A stretch of DNA of 64,000 bases from a phage: sequence record PZ154897.1. One strand, given 5' to 3'. Under the pieces are notes generated by a model that did not search any database, was not told the DNA's origin, and saw only the letters and a program-made list of their open reading frames with translations. A program made the position numbers and the translations under genes. Of the stretch, positions 4,439 to 46,283 are shown piece by piece; position 1 is the first letter of the stretch, and every line of letters starts with the position of its first letter.

Positions 4439-4930
4439 ATGTTTGTAGATGATGTAACACGAGCGTTTGAATCTGGTGATTTTGCTCGACCTAACTTATT
4501 CCAAGTAGAAATTTCTTATCTTGGACAAAATTTTACGTTTCAATGTAAAGCCACTGCTTTACCAGCTGGTATTGTAGAAAAAATTCCAGTCGGATTTATG
4601 AACCGTAAAATTAACGTAGCAGGCGATCGTACATTCGATGACTGGACTGTTACAGTAATGAACGATGAGGCACATGATGCTCGCCAGAAGTTTGTTGATT
4701 GGCAAAGCATTGCTGCTGGGCAAGGGAACGAAATTACTGGTGGAAAACCAGCAGAGTATAAAAAGAGTGCTATCGTTCGTCAATATGCTCGTGACGCTAA
4801 AACAGTAACAAAAGAAATCGAAATTAAAGGCTTGTGGCCTACTAACGTGGGTGAACTTCAATTAGATTGGGATTCAAACAATGAAATCCAAACATTTGAA
4901 GTAACTCTTGCTCTCGATTATTGGGAATAA
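4439..4930 (+). CDS. 19: tail tube protein gp19
   Basis: 163-aa ORF; T4 gp19 length and sequence by recall. Confidence 0.95.
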   Translation: MFVDDVTRAFESGDFARPNLFQVEISYLGQNFTFQCKATALPAGIVEKIPVGFMNRKINVAGDRTFDDWTVTVMNDEAHDARQKFVDWQSIAAGQGNEITGGKPAEYKKSAIVRQYARDAKTVTKEIEIKGLWPTNVGELQLDWDSNNEIQTFEVTLALDYWE

Positions 4931-15175: not shown

Positions 15176-16687
15176 ATGACTGACATTAAAGTACATTTTT
15201 ATGATTTTAGTCACGTGAGAATTGATTGTGAAGAAAGTACATTTCATGAACTCCGTGATTTCTTTAGCTTTGAAGCTGATGGGTATCGTTTTAATCCGAA
15301 GTACAGATATGGCCACTGGGATGGACGAATCCGTCTTTTAGATTATAATCGTCTTCTTCCATTCGGCTTAGTCGGGCAAATTAAAAAGTTCTGTGATAAC
15401 TTTGGCTATAAAGCCTGGATTGACCCACAAATTAACGAAAAAGAAGAATTATCAAGAAAAGATTTTGATGAATGGCTTTCTAAATTAGAAATCTATTCAG
15501 GAAATAAAAGAATTGAACCACACTGGTATCAAAAAGATGCAGTGTTCGAAGGATTAGTTAATCGTCGTAGAATTCTTAATCTTCCAACATCCGCTGGTAA
15601 ATCTTTAATTCAAGCTTTGCTTGCTCGATATTATTTGGAAAATTATGAAGGTAAAATTCTTATCATTGTTCCAACAACTGCTCTGACAACTCAGATGGCT
15701 GATGACTTTGTTGACTATCGTTTATTCAGTCATGCAATGATAAAGAAAATCGGTGGTGGAGCATCAAAAGATGATAAATATAAAAATGATGCACCGGTAA
15801 TTGTTGGTACATGGCAAACTGTAGTAAAACAACCAAAAGAATGGTTCTCACAGTTTGGAATGATGATGAATGATGAATGCCATCTTGCCACAGGAAAAAG
15901 TATTTCATCTATCATATCAGGTTTAAATAACTGCATGTTCAAATTCGGTTTGTCTGGTTCATTACGTGATGGCAAAGCCAATATCATGCAGTATGTTGGA
16001 ATGTTTGGTGAAATATTTAAGCCAGTAACGACTTCTAAATTAATGGAAGATGGACAAGTAACTGAGTTAAAAATTAATAGTATTTTTCTTCGTTATCCCG
16101 ATGAGTTCACTACTAAATTAAAGGGAAAAACTTACCAAGAAGAAATAAAAATTATTACTGGGCTCAGTAAAAGAAATAAATGGATCGCTAAATTAGCTAT
16201 TAAGCTTGCGCAAAAAGATGAAAACGCTTTTGTCATGTTTAAACATGTATCGCATGGTAAAGCTATTTTCGATTTAATTAAAAATGAATACGATAAAGTT
16301 TATTACGTATCAGGGGAAGTTGATACAGAAACCCGCAACGTAATGAAAACCTTAGCTGAAAATGGTAAAGGAATAATTATAGTAGCTAGTTATGGCGTAT
16401 TTTCTACTGGTATTTCAGTTAAAAATCTGCATCATGTTGTTTTAGCGCACGGCGTTAAATCAAAAATCATTGTATTACAAACAATCGGTCGTGTATTACG
16501 TAAGCATGGTTCTAAAACAATCGCAACAGTCTGGGACCTCATTGATGACGCGGGCGTAGTTTCTAAATCAAAAACATCTTCTAAAAAATACTCGCATTTA
16601 AACTATCTTTTAAAACACGGACTTGATCGTATTCAGCGTTATGCTGATGAGAAGTTTAATTATGTGATGAAAGAGGTTAAACTTTGA
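15176..16687 (+). CDS. uvsW: UvsW recombination/repair helicase (SF2)
   Basis: 503-aa ORF; Walker A TSAGKS, DECH box; T4 UvsW length. Confidence 0.9.
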   Translation: MTDIKVHFYDFSHVRIDCEESTFHELRDFFSFEADGYRFNPKYRYGHWDGRIRLLDYNRLLPFGLVGQIKKFCDNFGYKAWIDPQINEKEELSRKDFDEWLSKLEIYSGNKRIEPHWYQKDAVFEGLVNRRRILNLPTSAGKSLIQALLARYYLENYEGKILIIVPTTALTTQMADDFVDYRLFSHAMIKKIGGGASKDDKYKNDAPVIVGTWQTVVKQPKEWFSQFGMMMNDECHLATGKSISSIISGLNNCMFKFGLSGSLRDGKANIMQYVGMFGEIFKPVTTSKLMEDGQVTELKINSIFLRYPDEFTTKLKGKTYQEEIKIITGLSKRNKWIAKLAIKLAQKDENAFVMFKHVSHGKAIFDLIKNEYDKVYYVSGEVDTETRNVMKTLAENGKGIIIVASYGVFSTGISVKNLHHVVLAHGVKSKIIVLQTIGRVLRKHGSKTIATVWDLIDDAGVVSKSKTSSKKYSHLNYLLKHGLDRIQRYADEKFNYVMKEVKL

Positions 16688-17376
16688 ATTATAAATTAAT
16701 ATATGATAATTTAATTAATAGAGCCCAGAATCGGGCTCGCCTTAATGGATACACTGAAACTCATCATATAATTCCTAGATGTATGGGCGGTACAGATGAT
16801 AAGTGTAATTTGGTAGAACTAACAGCTGAAGAGCATTTTATAGCTCATAAACTTTTAGCTAAAATTCATCCAAACCATTACGGTATAATTAAAGCCGTTA
16901 TATGTATGGGGATGAATTCAAAGACTCATGAAAGACACGTTAATAAATCTTACGCCTGGGAACGTCGTAAAATGGCAGAACTTCAATCAGGTGAAGGTAA
17001 TCCATTTTACGGAAAACACCATACGGAAGAACATAAACAATATATGTCAAAACTCATGAAAAATCGTCCAATTACGTGGGGAAGTAAAATTAGTAAAACT
17101 AAAAGAATGAACCCAACAAAATGGACTGAAGAAGCTAAAAGATTGCATTCTATCAATCAATCAGGTAAAAATAATGGCATGTATGGAAGGAAACATTCCG
17201 CTAAATCTATTCAGAAAATTAAAGATAACATGCCAGATAATTCAGGAGCTAATAACCCAGCTGCTAAACCTATAGAAGTAAATGGTGTTAAGTATAAATG
17301 CATGAAAGATGCTTCTAAAGCTACTGGATTATCAATGTACAAACTAAGAATACTTAGAAAAACAGTTAATTTATAA
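16684..17376 (+). CDS. HNH homing endonuclease with NUMOD3-like repeats
   Basis: 230-aa ORF; HHIIPRCMGG...N...EH..AH HNH motif; NPFYGKHHTEEHK repeats; N-terminus paralogous to 43031-43762; TTG start overlapping uvsW stop. Confidence 0.8.
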   Translation: MNYKLIYDNLINRAQNRARLNGYTETHHIIPRCMGGTDDKCNLVELTAEEHFIAHKLLAKIHPNHYGIIKAVICMGMNSKTHERHVNKSYAWERRKMAELQSGEGNPFYGKHHTEEHKQYMSKLMKNRPITWGSKISKTKRMNPTKWTEEAKRLHSINQSGKNNGMYGRKHSAKSIQKIKDNMPDNSGANNPAAKPIEVNGVKYKCMKDASKATGLSMYKLRILRKTVNL

Positions 17377-23842: not shown

Positions 23843-24937
23843 ATGGCAATTGTTAAAGAAATAACTACTGATTTAATTAAAAAGTCCGGTGAGAAAATTT
23901 CAGCCGGACAGAGTACTAAATCAGAAGTAGTAACTAAAACATACACTGCCCAGTTTCCAACTGGGCGTGCTAGTGGTAATGACACTACAGGGGACTTCCA
24001 GGTAACAGATCTATATAAGAATGGATTATTATTTACTGCATACAATATGTCATCTAGGGATTCTGGAAGTCTTAGATCGATGAGATCTAACTACTCTTCT
24101 TCATCTTCGAGTATTTTAAGTACAGCTAAAAACACTATTAGTAGTACAGTATCAAAACTATCAAATGGATTAATATCAAATAATAATTCAGGAACAATAA
24201 GTAAAGCTCCTGTCGCAAATATTCTTTTACCGAGATCTAAATCTGATGTTGATACATCATCACATAGATTTAATGATGTTCAAGAAAGTCTTATTAGCAG
24301 AGGCGGAGGTACTGCTACTGGTGTGCTAAGTAATATTGCTTCAACCGCAGTATTTGGGGCACTGGAAAGTATAACACAAGGCATAATGGCTGATAATAAT
24401 GAACAGATTTATACGACAGCCAGAAGTATGTATGGTGGTGCTGAAAATAGAACTAAAGTGTTTACATGGGATTTGACTCCACGTTCAACAGAAGATTTAA
24501 TGGCTATTATTAATATCTATCAATATTTTAACTATTTTTCTTATGGTGAAACGGGTAAATCTCAATATGCTGCTGAAATAAAGGGGTATTTAGATGATTG
24601 GTATCGTTCTACGTTAATTGAACCTTTATCTCCGGAAGACGCAGCTAAAAATAAAACACTATTTGAGAAAATGACAGCAAGTTTAACGAACGTTCTTGTA
24701 GTTTCAAACCCGACAGTTTGGATGGTGAAAAACTTTGGCGCAACATCTAAGTTTGATGGAAAAACGGAAATATTTGGTCCATGCCAAATACAGAGCATTA
24801 GATTTGATAAAACACCTAATGGTAACTTTAACGGATTAGCTATTGCTCCAAACCTCCCTAGTACATTTACTCTCGAGATTACTATGAGAGAAATTATCAC
24901 GTTAAACCGTGCTTCTTTATATGCGGGGACTTTTTAA
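23843..24937 (+). CDS. 48: baseplate tail-tube cap gp48
   Basis: 364-aa ORF; T4 gp48 length. Confidence 0.9.
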   Translation: MAIVKEITTDLIKKSGEKISAGQSTKSEVVTKTYTAQFPTGRASGNDTTGDFQVTDLYKNGLLFTAYNMSSRDSGSLRSMRSNYSSSSSSILSTAKNTISSTVSKLSNGLISNNNSGTISKAPVANILLPRSKSDVDTSSHRFNDVQESLISRGGGTATGVLSNIASTAVFGALESITQGIMADNNEQIYTTARSMYGGAENRTKVFTWDLTPRSTEDLMAIINIYQYFNYFSYGETGKSQYAAEIKGYLDDWYRSTLIEPLSPEDAAKNKTLFEKMTASLTNVLVVSNPTVWMVKNFGATSKFDGKTEIFGPCQIQSIRFDKTPNGNFNGLAIAPNLPSTFTLEITMREIITLNRASLYAGTF

Positions 24938-25724
24938 TGTATTCTTTAGAGGAATTTAATAATCAAGCAATAAACGCAGATTTCCAACGTAATAATATGT
25001 TTAGCTGCGTTTTTGCGCTGGCACACAAAAACTGATAAGAAAATCAGGGGTTAGTAAATATCTTATTGGTGCCATGAGTCAACGTACAGTTCAAAGTTTA
25101 TTGGGCTCATTTACAGTTGGTACATATTTAATTGACTTCTTTAACATGGCATATAACTCATCTGGATTGATGATATATTCTGTAAAAATGCCAGAGAATA
25201 GATTATCCTATGAAACTGACTGGAACTATAATTCTCCTAATATTCGTATAACTGGGAGAGAATTAGACCCTTTGGTTATTTCATTTAGGATGGATTCAGA
25301 AGCATGTAATTATCGTGCGATGCAAGACTGGGTTAACGCTGTTCAAGACCCAGTAACTGGATTGCGTGCTTTACCACAAGATGTCGAGGCAGACATTCAA
25401 GTTAATCTTCATTCTCGTAATGGATTGCCTCATACTGCGGTGATGTTCACTGGATGCATTCCAATATCAGTGAGCGCTCCTGAGTTATCATATGATGGAG
25501 ATAACCAAATAACTACATTTGATGTTACTTTTGCGTATAGAGTGATGCAGGCTGGAGCGGTTGATAGGCAAGCTGCGCTTGAATGGCTTGAATCTGCTGC
25601 TATAAATGGTATTCAAAGCGTTCTCGGAAATAGTGGAGGTGTTACTGGACTATCTAATTCGCTTTCACGACTTAGTAGACTAGGAGGAACCTCAGGAAGC
25701 ATTTCAAATATTAGTATACTATGA
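24937..25724 (+). CDS. 54: baseplate tail-tube initiator gp54 homolog, interrupted by a frameshift as sequenced (32 codons at 24937-25035, remainder in -1 frame to 25724)
   Basis: Tube-fold motifs split across two frames (FQRNNMFSCVF in frame A; ...TTFDVTFAYRVMQ in frame B); synteny after gene 48. Confidence 0.7.
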
Positions 25725-25772
25725 CAGGGATTGTCAATTCGCAAAGTAAAATATTAGGAGCAATATAACAAT

Positions 25773-25790
25773 GGGGACCGAAAGGTCCCC
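25773..25790. terminator. bidirectional terminator between 54 (+) and alt.-3 (-)
   Basis: GGGGACC-GAAA-GGTCCCC with T-run. Confidence 0.8.
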
Positions 25791-25796
25791 ATATTT

Positions 25797-26087
25797 TTAT
25801 TTACGGAATGAAATGAAAGCAGCAACTGAAGCAACTAAACTGTCTTCAATATAAACTTCAATTTTTACCGGAGCTTCTGACTCAAATTTACCTGTTACTA
25901 CACCTTGGAAAATACTTTCAGTCTGTTCTGGCTTTGAAAAATTTTCAGAAGGAAAAATTCCAAACTTTTTATCTGTTCCGAAAATTTTGATAAATTCATC
26001 ATAAACTGCTTCATTAAAAGCATTATCAGCAGGAATAACGCCTTCAACTACAAGTTCTTGACCTAAAAAGCGTAAAGAAGATTTCAT
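25797..26087 (-). CDS. hypothetical protein (alt.-3 position)
   Basis: 96-aa ORF with GAGGAA RBS, downstream of early promoter. Confidence 0.55.
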   Translation of the reverse strand: MKSSLRFLGQELVVEGVIPADNAFNEAVYDEFIKIFGTDKKFGIFPSENFSKPEQTESIFQGVVTGKFESEAPVKIEVYIEDSLVASVAAFISFRK

Positions 26088-26118
26088 TTTGTGTTCCTCA
26101 TGTTATGTCAGTAAGACT

Positions 26119-26148
26119 ACTATAACACAACACGAGGGACTTGTAAAC
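26119..26148 (-). promoter_or_regulatory. early sigma70-type promoter (GTTTACA-N17-TATAGT)
   Basis: Minus-strand -35 at 26142-26148, -10 at 26119-26124; drives ORF starting 26087. Confidence 0.7.
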
Positions 26149-26505
26149 TACATTTTGAACTTTTTAGTACGCGTAATAGGCATGCGTCGATTTTATACTG
26201 TTTCATTGTTTGAAGAGCAGTATCAAAAACAGCATTAATGACACCAATTGGATTTCCACCCAAGTTTTTAAGCTTAACTAATGATAGTTTCTCATTAACA
26301 CCTATCATTACGATATGCATCATTTTGTCGCCTGGCTTAACGTTTTTATTTGTATCACCGCCAGAGGTGTATGTACAAAATCTAAATCCAGGAAGCACGC
26401 TTTCTTCGCCGGCTTGAATAGCAAAATTTGTGGTATTTTATGCTTAGGATTTAAGTTAACAACCGGCGCCGAAGCGCCGTCAAATAATTCTGTAATAAGT
26501 TCCAT
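26120..26505 (-). pseudogene. frameshifted partial duplicate of alt 5' region (alt.-1/alt.-2-like ORFs)
   Basis: MELITELFD...NLNPKHKIPQI and PGFRFCTYTSGGDTN...MKQYKIDACLLRVLKS parallel Alt residues 1-120 in two frames. Confidence 0.6.
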
Positions 26506-26508
26506 GAT

Positions 26509-28560
26509 TTATCCTTGAACGAACTTGTAAGGCATGTTTGCAATATCTATGCAAGACGCAATAATTCCAAGAGATGATTCTACTTTCTGTTTAACATTTG
26601 ATGAAACAAATGATGCAAAGTCAACTCTATCTTCTATATCACCTGTCATTGTAACCAATTCACCAGTTTCCATTAAATGGTCTCCGTCATAGATTACCGA
26701 TTCGGTGAGTTCTTCTGTGGTCATAACTTCAGCTTGAATAAGCTTGTTGTTAGTTCTAACTGTTCCATCGTTGTAAGATGCATCGGTTATTTTATTAACT
26801 TTGACCATTAATCCACGTGGCAAAATGACTTCCATTTCATTTGAAGGCGCTAAACTTCCACCGGGTAAAACAACATTGACTTTATCAGCCCCAGTAATAA
26901 CCCATCCAATTCCAACTAAATTATCGCTAGAATTTACAAGTCCTTCATCAGTTTTATCAATAGAAACACTTAGACGCTTTTCGTCTGGTAAAACACCTAT
27001 AGATGAATCAGTCATCCAAGTACCAAAAATATTTGGATATAATGATGTTGACACAAAGTTTCTAAAATAAAAAACTCGATTTTTTACCATTGCTTCATAT
27101 ATTGAAGGTAACATTCGTTGTGAACGATACAAAGTAATACCTTTTGGTAATCGTTCACCATTTTTAAAGGCTGAATCTAAATTATCAATGGCTTGTTCTA
27201 TTTCAGGTGCTGTTAAAATACTTGTACGCTCATCTGGATTATATAATCCCAAAAGAGCATTATTCATGTCTACATATCCTGAACCTACATATTCACGAAT
27301 TCCGCGTTTTTGCGCTGGTGTGTATTTAGATGAATCTTTATTTTCGACTATAGGATGTAATGACCATCCAGCGGTAAGAGCATATCCACGTAATTCTCTT
27401 CGAATAATCTTTGTTTTTATTGCATTCCAAGAATTTTGTACTAACTCATTTGCAGCATCTTGGTTTAAATGCGAATGTCTGTTAATATTTCTTTCAAACC
27501 AAGCACCTTTATATTTTTCTAAAGTATCATCGACGATAGAAGCAATAGTTTCTAAAGTTTTTATTGAAGTAATAGATTCTTTTCGTAATTTTTCTAAAGC
27601 TTTATTTTTTATTTCTGCATTAATAATGGATTCTTTATCTTCAGGAATTATAGAAGCTTCTCTGAATGCCATCCCAGCTGTAACACTGCTAAGAGCATTC
27701 TCTAGTGCAAATCCTGAAGTAGAAATTACCGTTAATTCATTAGAATCAGAAATTAAAGGAGCGTCCGCTGGTTTATTTAATTCTGCCGCTGAAGCCTCAA
27801 ATTTTTGAAACATCGGTGTTTCAAATCTAGAAGATTCCAATGACTGACTTTGTGCAATTGCTCTACGGGAAATTTTAACTTTAACGATTACAGCTTGGTC
27901 AGAACGTTTATCATTTTCTTGTGCAATAGATGCTGCAATTGCCTCATTTTTAGTTACTTGAGCTCCAGTATCTTTATTGATATAAACATCACCGACCTTC
28001 GATTCAACCTTAGTAAAGAGCTCGGTACTAATTTCCGGAACCCCTGGAATGTCTTCTAGTGATACATTTTTGCGATGTATAAGAATATATGCATACTTTT
28101 TATCATAATCCCAGAGTTCCTTAAGAAGGACGTATCTGCCACCTGAACGACTACGGATAAGTCTATCAGCAATAACTTGAATTTGTCGAGCTTGACCAGC
28201 GGTTTTAGACTTAAGAATACGGAGCATACAAGCATCAATTTTATATTGACGCATTGTTTGCATTGCAACAGTAAAAACTGAATTGATATAATTAATTGGG
28301 CTTGGCCCAAGACCTTTCAATTTAGCAATTGAACCTTTAGCGGTTAATGTAAAAGGAACAATATGCATCATTTTATCGCCCATCTTTAAATCACGATTAG
28401 TATCACCTCCAGATGTATAGGTACATAAACGAAAGCCCGGTTGTTCAATTGCGTCATCAACATGAACTGAAAAAATTTGCGGTATTTTCTTCTTTGGATT
28501 TAAGTTTGTAATTGGAAGAGTAGTATCTTCGTCAAATAATTCTGTAATTAGTTCCATCAT
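26509..28560 (-). CDS. alt: Alt, packaged ADP-ribosyltransferase
   Basis: 683-aa ORF; T4 Alt is about 682 aa; synteny next to gene 30. Confidence 0.9.
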   Translation of the reverse strand: MMELITELFDEDTTLPITNLNPKKKIPQIFSVHVDDAIEQPGFRLCTYTSGGDTNRDLKMGDKMMHIVPFTLTAKGSIAKLKGLGPSPINYINSVFTVAMQTMRQYKIDACMLRILKSKTAGQARQIQVIADRLIRSRSGGRYVLLKELWDYDKKYAYILIHRKNVSLEDIPGVPEISTELFTKVESKVGDVYINKDTGAQVTKNEAIAASIAQENDKRSDQAVIVKVKISRRAIAQSQSLESSRFETPMFQKFEASAAELNKPADAPLISDSNELTVISTSGFALENALSSVTAGMAFREASIIPEDKESIINAEIKNKALEKLRKESITSIKTLETIASIVDDTLEKYKGAWFERNINRHSHLNQDAANELVQNSWNAIKTKIIRRELRGYALTAGWSLHPIVENKDSSKYTPAQKRGIREYVGSGYVDMNNALLGLYNPDERTSILTAPEIEQAIDNLDSAFKNGERLPKGITLYRSQRMLPSIYEAMVKNRVFYFRNFVSTSLYPNIFGTWMTDSSIGVLPDEKRLSVSIDKTDEGLVNSSDNLVGIGWVITGADKVNVVLPGGSLAPSNEMEVILPRGLMVKVNKITDASYNDGTVRTNNKLIQAEVMTTEELTESVIYDGDHLMETGELVTMTGDIEDRVDFASFVSSNVKQKVESSLGIIASCIDIANMPYKFVQG

Positions 28561-28580: not shown

Positions 28581-28588
28581 TATTTATA
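28581..28588 (-). promoter_or_regulatory. late promoter TATAAATA (minus strand) for alt
   Basis: Plus-strand tatttata 20 nt upstream of alt start. Confidence 0.65.
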
Positions 28589-28593
28589 AAATT

Positions 28594-28611
28594 AAAGGCC
28601 CGAAGGCCTTT
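28594..28611 (-). terminator. hairpin terminator upstream of alt
   Basis: AAAGGCC-CGAA-GGCCTTT stem-loop. Confidence 0.6.
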
Positions 28612-28798
28612 AATAATCTAACGGTAAGAGAGTACGATATATTTCAAACTTTGGACCTTTTTCATAGGCATCAAATGTTTCTGTGAATTTATTATAAGCA
28701 TATGCATCTACAAATTCGAGAATGACTTGTGATACAGAAGTAGAAACATCTCCACCTTCTTTTTGAGCAATGACAATTGTTTCTAAGTAAGCTTTCAT
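28610..28798 (-). CDS. hypothetical small protein
   Basis: 62-aa ORF overlapping gene 30 stop. Confidence 0.4.
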   Translation of the reverse strand: MKAYLETIVIAQKEGGDVSTSVSQVILEFVDAYAYNKFTETFDAYEKGPKFEIYRTLLPLDY

Positions 28799-30258
28799 AG
28801 ACCAGTTACCTCATGAAAATCGCCAAATACATCTTCGAACGTATTAGCTTTAGTTTTATCTTCACGTAAACGAATCGCAATTGGAAGAAATAATTTTACG
28901 TAATCAGTGCGGCCATCAGATTTTAACCAACCATTGCATTCGCACTCTAGAATTTTTCCAATATAATAATTTTGGTTTTCCATAATGCGAGTACGGTCAA
29001 GTTCATGCGATTTTACACCGGCTTTATCTTTTAAGCCTGAACCAGCATTTACCTTAATTTTTCCACACTCTGACTCAAGAATAAATCCACCTGCTTTAGT
29101 AGGGTCTTTACGGTGAGGATAAATTCCTACAATTTTTAAATCAACATCAATTACTTCTTTAAATTTATAGAGATTTTTTGAACGAGCATTTTCCCATAAT
29201 CCATCGATATTTTTGAGAATAATACCTTCAAGACCTTGGTCAATATACTTTTTATAAATTACCTTAGCTTCATCTAGGTTATTTACTACCTGGTTTTCAA
29301 TTAAAATTACTTTATCATAGCCTGATGTCATTTGTTCTAGTTTAGAAAAACGTACATCATATTTTAAACGAAATGCAGGAAGACCGTATATTTCTACCAA
29401 CGGGACATAATCCCAGACCTGAAACTTCATGCATTGAGCTTCTTTTTCAGAAATGGTTCCCTTTAAAGATTTATTGGCGATGCCATTAGATGCAGTACGT
29501 GATTCAGCTACTTCTGTGAAGTCTTTAACTTTGCTGTTTTCAGGATGAGCATCAAAAAGAAAATCTAGGCCTTCTGGTTCCTTTTCAACTTGCTCATGGT
29601 ATACCAATTCGCCATCAATTAACACGCCTTCTGGATGAATCTGGCGGGCTTCAGCGGTCATTTTGATTAATTCTTCCTTAAGAAGATCTAATCCTAGATA
29701 TTCATTACCGGCTCGTGATAAAAGACGAACATCATCTAATTCATCACCTCGGACTTCAGCAAAACACCGAGCTCCATCTGCTTTTAACTGCGCAAAGGCT
29801 GGAAATTTGATATTCTTATTAATGCCTTTTTCATCATAAGAACTTGCGAGCATTTGAGGTTGTTCAGGAATTAAACCCGGCCAAACTTTGTTTGCAATAG
29901 ATACTGAAGCACCACATTCAAGGTCTCGCATCATAACTCGACGCAAAACTTCAACATCATCCTTTTTACCATCGGTGATATATCCGGTTAATTCCTCAAT
30001 TGCTGCATTTCCAGTCAATTTCCGAGTAGCTAACGTGAATTCAATGAAGTCAAGCATATCGGTAATAGTCAGCATTCCAAAACTCTGAGTAGCAATACCA
30101 GGCTTAGGCCATTTTTTGATATAATACTGCAACCCACGAGAATAAGTCAGACGATATACTCGTTTAAGCAATTCATTATCTTTATTCTTTTCAAGAATTG
30201 CTTGCTTCTGCTTAGTTGAACCAATAGATGCTATTTCATTCAGAATTTTAAGAATCAT
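28795..30258 (-). CDS. 30: ATP-dependent DNA ligase gp30
   Basis: 487-aa ORF; T4 DNA ligase length; ligase motif K-x-DG (IKADGAR). Confidence 0.95.
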   Translation of the reverse strand: MILKILNEIASIGSTKQKQAILEKNKDNELLKRVYRLTYSRGLQYYIKKWPKPGIATQSFGMLTITDMLDFIEFTLATRKLTGNAAIEELTGYITDGKKDDVEVLRRVMMRDLECGASVSIANKVWPGLIPEQPQMLASSYDEKGINKNIKFPAFAQLKADGARCFAEVRGDELDDVRLLSRAGNEYLGLDLLKEELIKMTAEARQIHPEGVLIDGELVYHEQVEKEPEGLDFLFDAHPENSKVKDFTEVAESRTASNGIANKSLKGTISEKEAQCMKFQVWDYVPLVEIYGLPAFRLKYDVRFSKLEQMTSGYDKVILIENQVVNNLDEAKVIYKKYIDQGLEGIILKNIDGLWENARSKNLYKFKEVIDVDLKIVGIYPHRKDPTKAGGFILESECGKIKVNAGSGLKDKAGVKSHELDRTRIMENQNYYIGKILECECNGWLKSDGRTDYVKLFLPIAIRLREDKTKANTFEDVFGDFHEVTGL

Positions 30259-36105: not shown

Positions 36106-36338
36106 AGTACGCCATACACCCTTTGTGCTTCAACTAATCCATCAAAATCCAGTTTAAGATGTGTTATTTGGTCACCATCACCTGGATTCACAATTACTAA
36201 TACTGAACGAGGAGTCTCGGTAATAACACGAACCGATGTTTCAGGAAATCGTTCAGAAACCTTATTTACCAATTCTTGAGCAAATAGTTTAACTTTTTCT
36301 TGGAATTCTTTAACAGTAATTGGTTTTTCGCTTAGCAT
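36102..36338 (-). CDS. hypothetical protein
   Basis: 78-aa ORF. Confidence 0.45.
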   Translation of the reverse strand: MLSEKPITVKEFQEKVKLFAQELVNKVSERFPETSVRVITETPRSVLVIVNPGDGDQITHLKLDFDGLVEAQRVYGVL

Positions 36339-36859
36339 GTTGATCCCAGCTCCTTACTTTCAACGTTTTTAACTAATTTGACAGAAACTAATTCGGCATC
36401 TTGGGTAATCATTACCGGGCCTTCTTCATACTCTTCAAGATATTCTAGAGCTTTCTTTTTAGCTTCTTCCTTCGTATCAGTTTGAGCATAGATATAGAAC
36501 ATACAACCAGTAATACCTACTACTTTCCACTTAATTTCTTTATCAGCTTTAATTTCAAATTTACTGACAGAATCATCTTTTTGAACTTCTTCGAAAAAAG
36601 AATATTCTAACATATAAGCAATTGAAAATAACGGGCTAACTTTATAGGATTCGCCCATTACATCAACAGCTTTATACCAGCAATCGTCAATTTCGCGTTT
36701 AATGCTAATAACATTTTTCGCAGGATCTATTTTTACTTTAAATGAATTTTCCCCAATAAACTGGGCAATTCGTTTATTAGCCCCGCAAGTTTCATTAAAA
36801 ATATCTTTATATCCAGCTTTAAAGCGATAAACCTTACCTTCTTCAAACCATTCGCTCAT
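36332..36859 (-). CDS. hypothetical protein
   Basis: 175-aa ORF downstream of early promoter. Confidence 0.5.
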   Translation of the reverse strand: MSEWFEEGKVYRFKAGYKDIFNETCGANKRIAQFIGENSFKVKIDPAKNVISIKREIDDCWYKAVDVMGESYKVSPLFSIAYMLEYSFFEEVQKDDSVSKFEIKADKEIKWKVVGITGCMFYIYAQTDTKEEAKKKALEYLEEYEEGPVMITQDAELVSVKLVKNVESKELGSTC

Positions 36860-36889
36860 TTCAATTTCCTCATTTGTTTTGGTAGAGCT

Positions 36890-40176: not shown

Positions 40177-40204
40177 AAAGTCCTCATGTTATGTCAGTAA
40201 GTCT

Positions 40205-40234
40205 ACTATAACACAACACGAGGGACTTGTAAAC
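40205..40234 (-). promoter_or_regulatory. early promoter (GTTTACA-N17-TATAGT), near-identical copy of 26119-26148 cassette
   Basis: 53-bp identity with 26096-26148 except one base; includes leader and GAGGA RBS. Confidence 0.7.
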
Positions 40235-46026: not shown

Positions 46027-46283
46027 AAGTCCTCAACTTGAAAATCGTCTTTAAACAATCGGTTAACTATATGAGCTATTATATCACCATGACACGGCTT
46101 TGGTTTACATGTGCATCCTAGCCTCATTCCACGTAAAGGCTCTAAATGTGCTTTAGTTATTTCTCCGGATTTAATTCGACGTATAAAATCTTTTTTGAAT
46201 AATTCAATGGCAGCCTCCCGGCTGCCAGCATCTTTACCGACGTAATTTCCCCCAAAATGTACCACGGTGAATATTAACATCAA
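46017..46283 (-). CDS. hypothetical Cys/His-containing protein (nrdA.1 position)
   Basis: 88-aa ORF; CTCKPKPCHGD. Confidence 0.45.
   Translation of the reverse strand: MMLIFTVVHFGGNYVGKDAGSREAAIELFKKDFIRRIKSGEITKAHLEPLRGMRLGCTCKPKPCHGDIIAHIVNRLFKDDFQVEDLCN

Follow-up and report, generated by a model that had tools for sequence, protein, structure and literature searches.

The DNA immediately downstream of alt, at positions 26120–26505, is very probably a pseudogene, the non-functional remainder of a full-length second gene for an alt-like ADP-ribosyltransferase, which stood in tandem behind alt. The window analyzed here, 64,000 nt of record PZ154897.1, is a segment of a Tequatrovirus (T4-like) genome, and a 3-kb region around the locus is 97.7–98.8% identical to T4, e11/2 and many relatives. 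The initial annotation described a frameshifted partial tandem duplicate of the alt 5′ end. The segment is indeed a frameshifted, decaying alt paralogue, but its partial character was not original: both of its ends match an intact, full-length copy found in relatives (96.3% at one end and 99% at the other), which argues for origin from a complete paralogue through an internal deletion.

The features on which the argument draws are listed here from upstream to downstream along the minus strand.
28795–30258, minus strand: DNA ligase (ORF map)
28610–28798, minus strand: alt.1 (ORF map)
28581–28588, minus strand: putative T4-type late promoter, an exact copy of the motif TATAAATA, ~20 nt ahead of the alt start
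26509–28560, minus strand: full-length alt ORF, encoding the packaged ADP-ribosyltransferase, 683 aa from the first ATG; the functional paralogue
26423–26426, minus strand: frameshift site, a run of four T, against T5 in every intact allele and every other deleted one; −1 at gene nt 80 (alignments)
26320–26505, minus strand: alt.-1 ORF, 61 aa, starting MELITELFDGASAPVVNLNPKHKIPQI... (ORF map, phrog profiles)
26120–26398, minus strand: alt.-2 ORF, 92 aa from a GTG or 67 aa from the ATG at 26323 (ORF map, phrog profiles)
26159–26167, minus strand: deletion junction, with the sole surviving copy of the 9-bp repeat CTAAAAAGT (overlap of BLAST HSPs at query 394–402)
26148–26158, minus strand: last 11 nt of the intact second copy, TCAAAATGTAG, including its original TAG stop at 26148–26150 (alignment to 4743–4753 of the PV654520 locus, L004)
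26119–26147, minus strand: predicted sigma-70/T4 early-type promoter for alt.-3, TTTACA, 17 nt, TGTTATAGT (promoter scan, 10/12 matches, extended TG)
25797–26087, minus strand: alt.-3, 96 aa, DUF5498, an intact neighbor outside the duplicate (Pfam PF17602, E=1e-64)
25771–25792, both strands: bidirectional intrinsic terminator between alt.-3 and gene 54, with a 9-bp stem on both strands

The remnant immediately follows the alt stop codon and, on that strand, precedes alt.-3; this is the alt.-1/alt.-2 locus of T4. The terminator at 25771–25792 marks the end of the alt transcription unit and is annotated as a terminator in e11/2 and fPS-2; genes 54 and 48, on the plus strand, are convergent. The alt.-3 gene is treated in the T4 literature (PMC11618068).

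Both minus-strand ORFs of the initial annotation are present in the ORF map, at 26320–26505 and 26120–26398, and their sequences agree exactly with those quoted there. The first begins 4 nt past the alt stop codon, is preceded by the Shine-Dalgarno sequence AAGGA (26512–26516), and ends in a TGA that overlaps the alt.-2 ATG (26323) as ATGA. Residues 1–27 of Alt.-1 correspond to the N-terminus of the second Alt copy and its other 34 residues are out of frame; Alt.-2 takes up second-copy residues ~37–116 and then continues for 12 residues out of frame beyond the original stop. Profile matches follow the same division, with phrog_23015 (E=9e-18) and the Alt-like phrog_802 over residues 1–32 for Alt.-1, and phrog_15247 (E=3e-49) and phrog_802 over positions 41–120 (E=5e-35) for Alt.-2. 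Correcting the frame by restoring one T in the T-run yields a 128-aa product that is identical to residues 2–118 of the window's Alt at 73/117 positions (62%; BLASTP E=1e-49), so that the pair recapitulates the Alt N-terminus in two frames, as had been proposed, once a single frameshift is repaired. The nucleotide-level resemblance that the same proposal called for is also there: the remnant is ~70% identical to the alt 5′ end (238/338), the best patches spanning 31 nt (94%) and 35 nt (89%) and lying 2049–2052 nt away from the corresponding patches in alt. Because the likeness is so strong at the protein level (E=1e-49) and is repeated in the DNA, it goes far beyond chance, and a chance resemblance is ruled out.

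What the remnant retains is the N-terminal part only. The corrected 128-aa product has no Pfam domain and no ART catalytic domain (R, S-T-S and E-x-E motifs), and the remnant matches phrog_802 at positions 2–35 and 41–120 only; Alt N-terminal homology is present, though the ART domain is absent. The window's own Alt carries the PF03496 ADPrib_exo_Tox domain at residues 375–615 (E=7e-34) and is identical to T4 Alt at 674/682 residues. Searches of the PDB returned distant relatives for the Alt ART domain only, with none over the N-terminal 116 residues.

The parent of the remnant can be read in its relatives. PV654520 has a 685-aa ORF at exactly the remnant's position, T6 and RB32 have a full-length second copy at the same position (labelled alt.-2), and T2 is also among the carriers. 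In the second copy, PF03496 is found at residues 416–620 and the motifs YRG, FVSTSL and EAEVILPRG are readable in the sequence; alt paralogues run to 683–697 aa, and the second copy is ~46% identical to Alt over its full length and 63% identical over the first 116 residues, the best-conserved part. The corrected remnant is identical to the T6 second copy at 115/116 residues vs 73/116 for the window's Alt. Window positions 26560–26159 (402 nt) are 96.3% identical to PV654520 (L004 2641–3043) with a single 1-nt gap, a match that covers the first 348 nt of the second-copy gene and its upstream flank, and window positions 26167–26050 (118 nt) are 99% identical to L004 4734–4851, which comprises the last 20 nt of the second copy and its downstream flank. 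The interior 1.6 kb is found in 402–408 phage records, intact-length second copies being counted here by DNA coverage only. The two-gene state is thus the majority condition and the deletion allele, carried by T4, e11/2, RB55/59, the window and others, is the minority. The second copy of T6, RB32, T2, PV654520 and ~400 other Tequatrovirus records is orthologous to the window's locus, whose ends it matches at 96–99% of nucleotides and 115/116 residues; the T6/RB32-type gene keeps codons 117–685 with the PF03496 ADP-ribosyltransferase domain, all of which the window lacks.

The break between the two matching ends is precise. The two HSPs overlap by 9 bp, corresponding to L004 3035–3043 and 4734–4742, so that the repeat starts lie 1,699 bp apart; in T6, offsets 342 and 2041 mark the two copies of CTAAAAAGT. 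Deletion of 1,699 bp between these 9-bp direct repeats removes codons 117 onward and with them the whole catalytic domain. Deletions flanked by repeats are typical of slippage or illegitimate recombination. The second-copy CDS is annotated in L004 as ending at 4753, and the deletion ends 11 nt before the alt.-3 early promoter, which is spared. As 1,699 is not divisible by three, the frame continues 12 codons beyond the old TAG stop, and it terminates at a TAG inside the −10 box of the alt.-3 promoter, whose span (26119–26147) overlaps the end of the alt.-2 ORF. About 91 of 499 records carry the same junction, CTAAAAAGT followed by TCAAAATGTAG, in a single piece; in the remaining records the two halves lie apart with the break at the repeat, and the 402–408 records with the interior and the 91 with the junction make up the total.

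Alleles that share the deletion differ in what happened afterward. We aligned 17 deletion alleles, all with the same junction. A stop at codon 6 (E6*, 16G>T, GAA to TAA) is present in fPS-2, SG1, pSe_SNUABM_01, IME537 and CE1 (5/17 alleles); 160delA in T4, e11/2, G2540-3, F25, T4_ev151 and others; 278delT in IME537 and CE1; 342delA in F25; and 80delT in the window only. N2, SYGD1 and AV121 have the same deletion as the window and no second lesion, and therefore a single 128-aa ORF rather than two; the N2 and SYGD1 products are the same as the corrected window product. A shared junction with differing second lesions is the signature of a decaying pseudogene, so the suggestion of a decaying duplicate in the initial annotation is well founded, in the form of a decayed copy, and the two ORFs are not conserved across relatives as intact independent genes. 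Synonymous and nonsynonymous polymorphisms number 20:7 in the deletion alleles vs 17:1 in intact copies, counts that are underpowered, with AV121 mis-binned, and that are suggestive of relaxed constraint in the remnants. Polymorphism that is still mostly synonymous could reflect residual constraint, but it is accounted for just as well if the alleles are recent or have recombined with intact copies. Programmed frameshifting that rejoins the two ORFs finds no support, as the lesion is a simple homopolymer loss absent in every relative and the relatives have other lesions, including the codon-6 stop.

Comparison with T4 places the window's allele within this series. T4 alt.-1 and alt.-2 (NP_049810/NP_049809; ADJ39920/ADJ39919 in T4T) share with the window the position, the 1,699-bp junction, the ATGA overlap and the ORF lengths of 186 and 204 nt, at ~98% nucleotide identity. 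They differ in the frameshift: T4 has lost an A from an A5 run (AATAAAAAC) at nt 160, whereas in the window A5 is intact and a T is lost at nt 80. Alt.-1 consequently holds 55 parental residues in T4 vs 27 in the window and, because second lesions differ between genomes, the Alt.-1 of T4 and that of the window are not the same protein. The proposed comparison with T4 alt.-1/alt.-2 thus gives the same locus and junction with a different frameshift and, judged from the alignments, the window carries a different decay allele of the same remnant.

It is possible, if somewhat unlikely, that the split into two ORFs is a homopolymer sequencing or assembly error and that the true genome has a single 128-codon ORF of the N2/SYGD1 type. 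The four-T run is unique among 490 phage records, where the best match over 26300–26520 is 99.5% identical with one gap and none reaches 100%. The allele is also absent from IMG/VR as an exact match; that database is uninformative for the T-run, because the control T5 allele was found in just 2 IMG/VR contigs. Further points in favor of an error are the identity of the corrected product to those of N2 and SYGD1, and two other private changes in the window, C4 to C5 in nrdA.1 and the loss of 136 bp from gene 54, which suggest an imperfect assembly or a defective genome. Against it, 63/65 compared e11/2 genes are intact in the window, so that indel errors are not widespread, and homopolymer slippage is just the mutation expected of a true pseudogene, with analogous A-run and T-run losses in relatives. 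The conclusion that the segment is a remnant of the second copy is the same whether the T-run frameshift is real or an error.

At ~46249–46256 in nrdA.1 (minus strand), the window has C5 where e11/2 has C4, and the small ORF is frameshifted. In gene 54 (24937–25724), 136 bp present in T4, T6, RB32 and e11/2, and kept in 8/8 best-matching phage records, are missing at a junction near 25017; gp54 residues ~28–72 are lost and the frame is shifted, the product reading MYSLEE...SCVFA and then LAHKN*, with the rest in another frame. The product gp54 is the baseplate-tail tube initiator and is essential in T4. The genome may be defective or that of a mutant, or the disruption may have arisen in assembly. 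Separately, the gp54 C-terminus (25700–25724) of the window and of e11/2 (L008 5476–6399) ends ...SISNISIL*, 13 residues shorter than the T4/T6 ending ...SISNINTMTGIVNSQSKILGAI*; because the T4-type tail is readable in another frame, this appears to be a frameshift variant near the gene 3′ end common to a sublineage. Two blocks, 16672–17359 and 36334–36865, are in the window without alignment to e11/2; they lie near uvsW/hoc and cd and have the character of typical T-even mosaic insertions.

Whether anything is made from the remnant can be approached through its transcription. On the minus strand between alt and 25792, the terminator scan returned only weak intragenic sites and, as no convincing terminator separates them, alt and the remnant are expected to be co-transcribed. 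The late promoter TATAAATA probably drives read-through transcription of the remnant, and some translation is plausible from the good Shine-Dalgarno sequence and the ATGA stop/start overlap. Shotgun proteomics easily misses small proteins. The available expression data are for T4, a different phage from that of the window: alt.-1 and alt.-2 transcripts were detected there and are classed as "middle," like alt, and Alt.-1 and Alt.-2 are given as NA (not detected), with Alt and Alt.-3 proteins detected and alt.-3 early at both RNA and protein level (Wolfram-Schauerte et al., PMC9697503 supplement).

The N-terminus that the remnant preserves is of a kind that could be envisioned as a packaging signal. 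Prohead protease cuts Alt at ITE-6 and LTE-619 (PMC5694885), and the remnant keeps MELITE at Alt.-1 residues 1–6, a gp21-type propeptide motif, (I/L)-x-E, recorded as motif presence only; the remark in the initial annotation that the Alt N-terminus should carry a processing or targeting signal is therefore a reasonable one. From this it may be argued that the ORFs are functional late small genes, in which an Alt-like N-terminus (ITE-6) would direct a short peptide, or in some phages a 128-aa N-terminal domain, into the prohead core, either as cargo or to compete with Alt or modulate its packaging. We regard this as very unlikely. It draws on the retention of the first 27 residues including MELITE, on an undefined role for the Alt N-terminal propeptide removed at ITE-6 (PMC5694885), on the good Shine-Dalgarno sequence and co-transcription with alt, on the strong conservation of the first 116 residues between paralogues (63% vs 46% overall) and on the uninterrupted 128-aa ORF of N2, SYGD1 and AV121. 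Set against these are five different disabling lesions at differing positions, with the codon-6 stop in 5/17 alleles, products that vary by phage (27 parental Alt.-1 residues in the window vs 55 in T4) and the failure to detect either protein in T4 (PMC9697503). With lesions that vary by genome and T4 proteomics without Alt.-1 or Alt.-2 (PMC9697503), the suggestion that the copy encodes short packaged peptides is left unsupported. A more specific version, that late read-through yields an Alt-like N-terminal peptide with an ITE-6 end (61 aa in the window and 128 aa in N2 and SYGD1) which enters the prohead core or competes with Alt, the remnant being not inert but a small modulator of Alt packaging left after loss of the second transferase, seems more doubtful still. 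Peptides such as LFDGASAPVVNLNPK exemplify remnant-specific sequence.

Least probable, and refuted by the alignment to the intact copies, is the version shared by the first description and an older T4 RefSeq note, in which only the first ~360 nt of alt underwent tandem duplication and the copy later gained a stop or frameshift: a note in NC_000866.4 speaks of an "old duplication of the first part of gene alt," and inside the window a second copy is visible for the alt 5′ part only, but the segment is only ~70% identical to alt vs 96–99% to both ends of the paralogue in ~400 relatives, the break falls exactly at the 9-bp repeat, and the long copy's 3′ end, stop codon included, supplies the 11 nt that precede the alt.-3 promoter. 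The same identities rule out a recent duplication confined to the alt 5′ end. Nor is the short form likely to be ancestral, with the interior inserted, as RB32 and T6 notes ("apparent insertion in alt.-2") would have it: the interior has the ART domain and aligns full-length with Alt, and insertion of alt-homologous sequence into a short form is far less parsimonious.

Decay of a complete second gene can be envisioned in three steps. In the first, which would be old, alt was duplicated in an ancestor of the T-even phages. In the second, which the comparison of alleles shows, one lineage underwent the 1,699-bp deletion between CTAAAAAGT repeats, losing the catalytic domain; the 128-codon frame left behind crosses the old stop and reaches into the spared alt.-3 early promoter. 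In the third, likewise shown by the alleles, separate carriers of the deletion gained different disabling mutations, in the window the loss of one T from the T5 run, which splits the frame into alt.-1 (61 aa) and alt.-2 (67 or 92 aa). Read-through from the alt late promoter probably still transcribes the remnant, which most likely is without protein function; what selection preserves here is its surroundings, with the alt stop region on one side and the alt.-3 promoter on the other.

That promoter belongs to a 54-nt cassette that occurs twice in the window with one mismatch, at 26095–26148 (minus strand) before alt.-3 and at 40181–40234 (minus strand) before alc, just after rnlA. Each copy comprises an early promoter (GTTTAC, 17 nt, TATAGT), a leader and a GAGGA Shine-Dalgarno sequence, and e11/2 has the same pair. 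It looks like a duplicated or mobile regulatory cassette. The alt.-3 leader RNA has no significant stem-loop (z=−0.2), and for this reason we do not call the cassette a stem-loop element.

The remnant is an already known feature, annotated in GenBank T4 records to the extent of their notes on this locus. Nolan et al. 2006 (PMC1524935) treat alt.-1 and alt.-2 as paralogous duplications of alt; the same work describes alt paralogues beside alt, some of them truncated like that of the window, as 44RR ORF187c (full-length) and ORF188c and RB49 ORF183c, which belong to distant genera and are likened to the Tequatrovirus second copy by description only. In the T4T record HM137666, a note reads [quoted passage not shown] and it is this note, rather than the "duplication of the first part" note in RefSeq, that our analysis supports, as far as the wording of the two notes goes. 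To that note the analysis adds the 9-bp repeats, the escape of the alt.-3 promoter from the deletion, and the diversity of the secondary lesions. In G2540-3 (MK327944, L005 643–2749), alt itself is annotated as two ORFs, 643–2373 and 2423–2749; this phage may accordingly have lost both Alt-like transferases.

The consequence is mainly one of annotation hygiene: alt.-1 and alt.-2 are better read together as one pseudogene of a second alt paralogue than as two hypothetical proteins or as a duplicate of the first part of alt. The locus also lays out the stages of gene decay in T-even phages as a clean natural series, from an intact copy through a repeat-mediated deletion to several independent secondary lesions. 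Most T-even phages, unlike T4, have two packaged-type Alt-like ADP-ribosyltransferases, and work on Alt in T4 therefore describes a lineage in which one of them has been lost.
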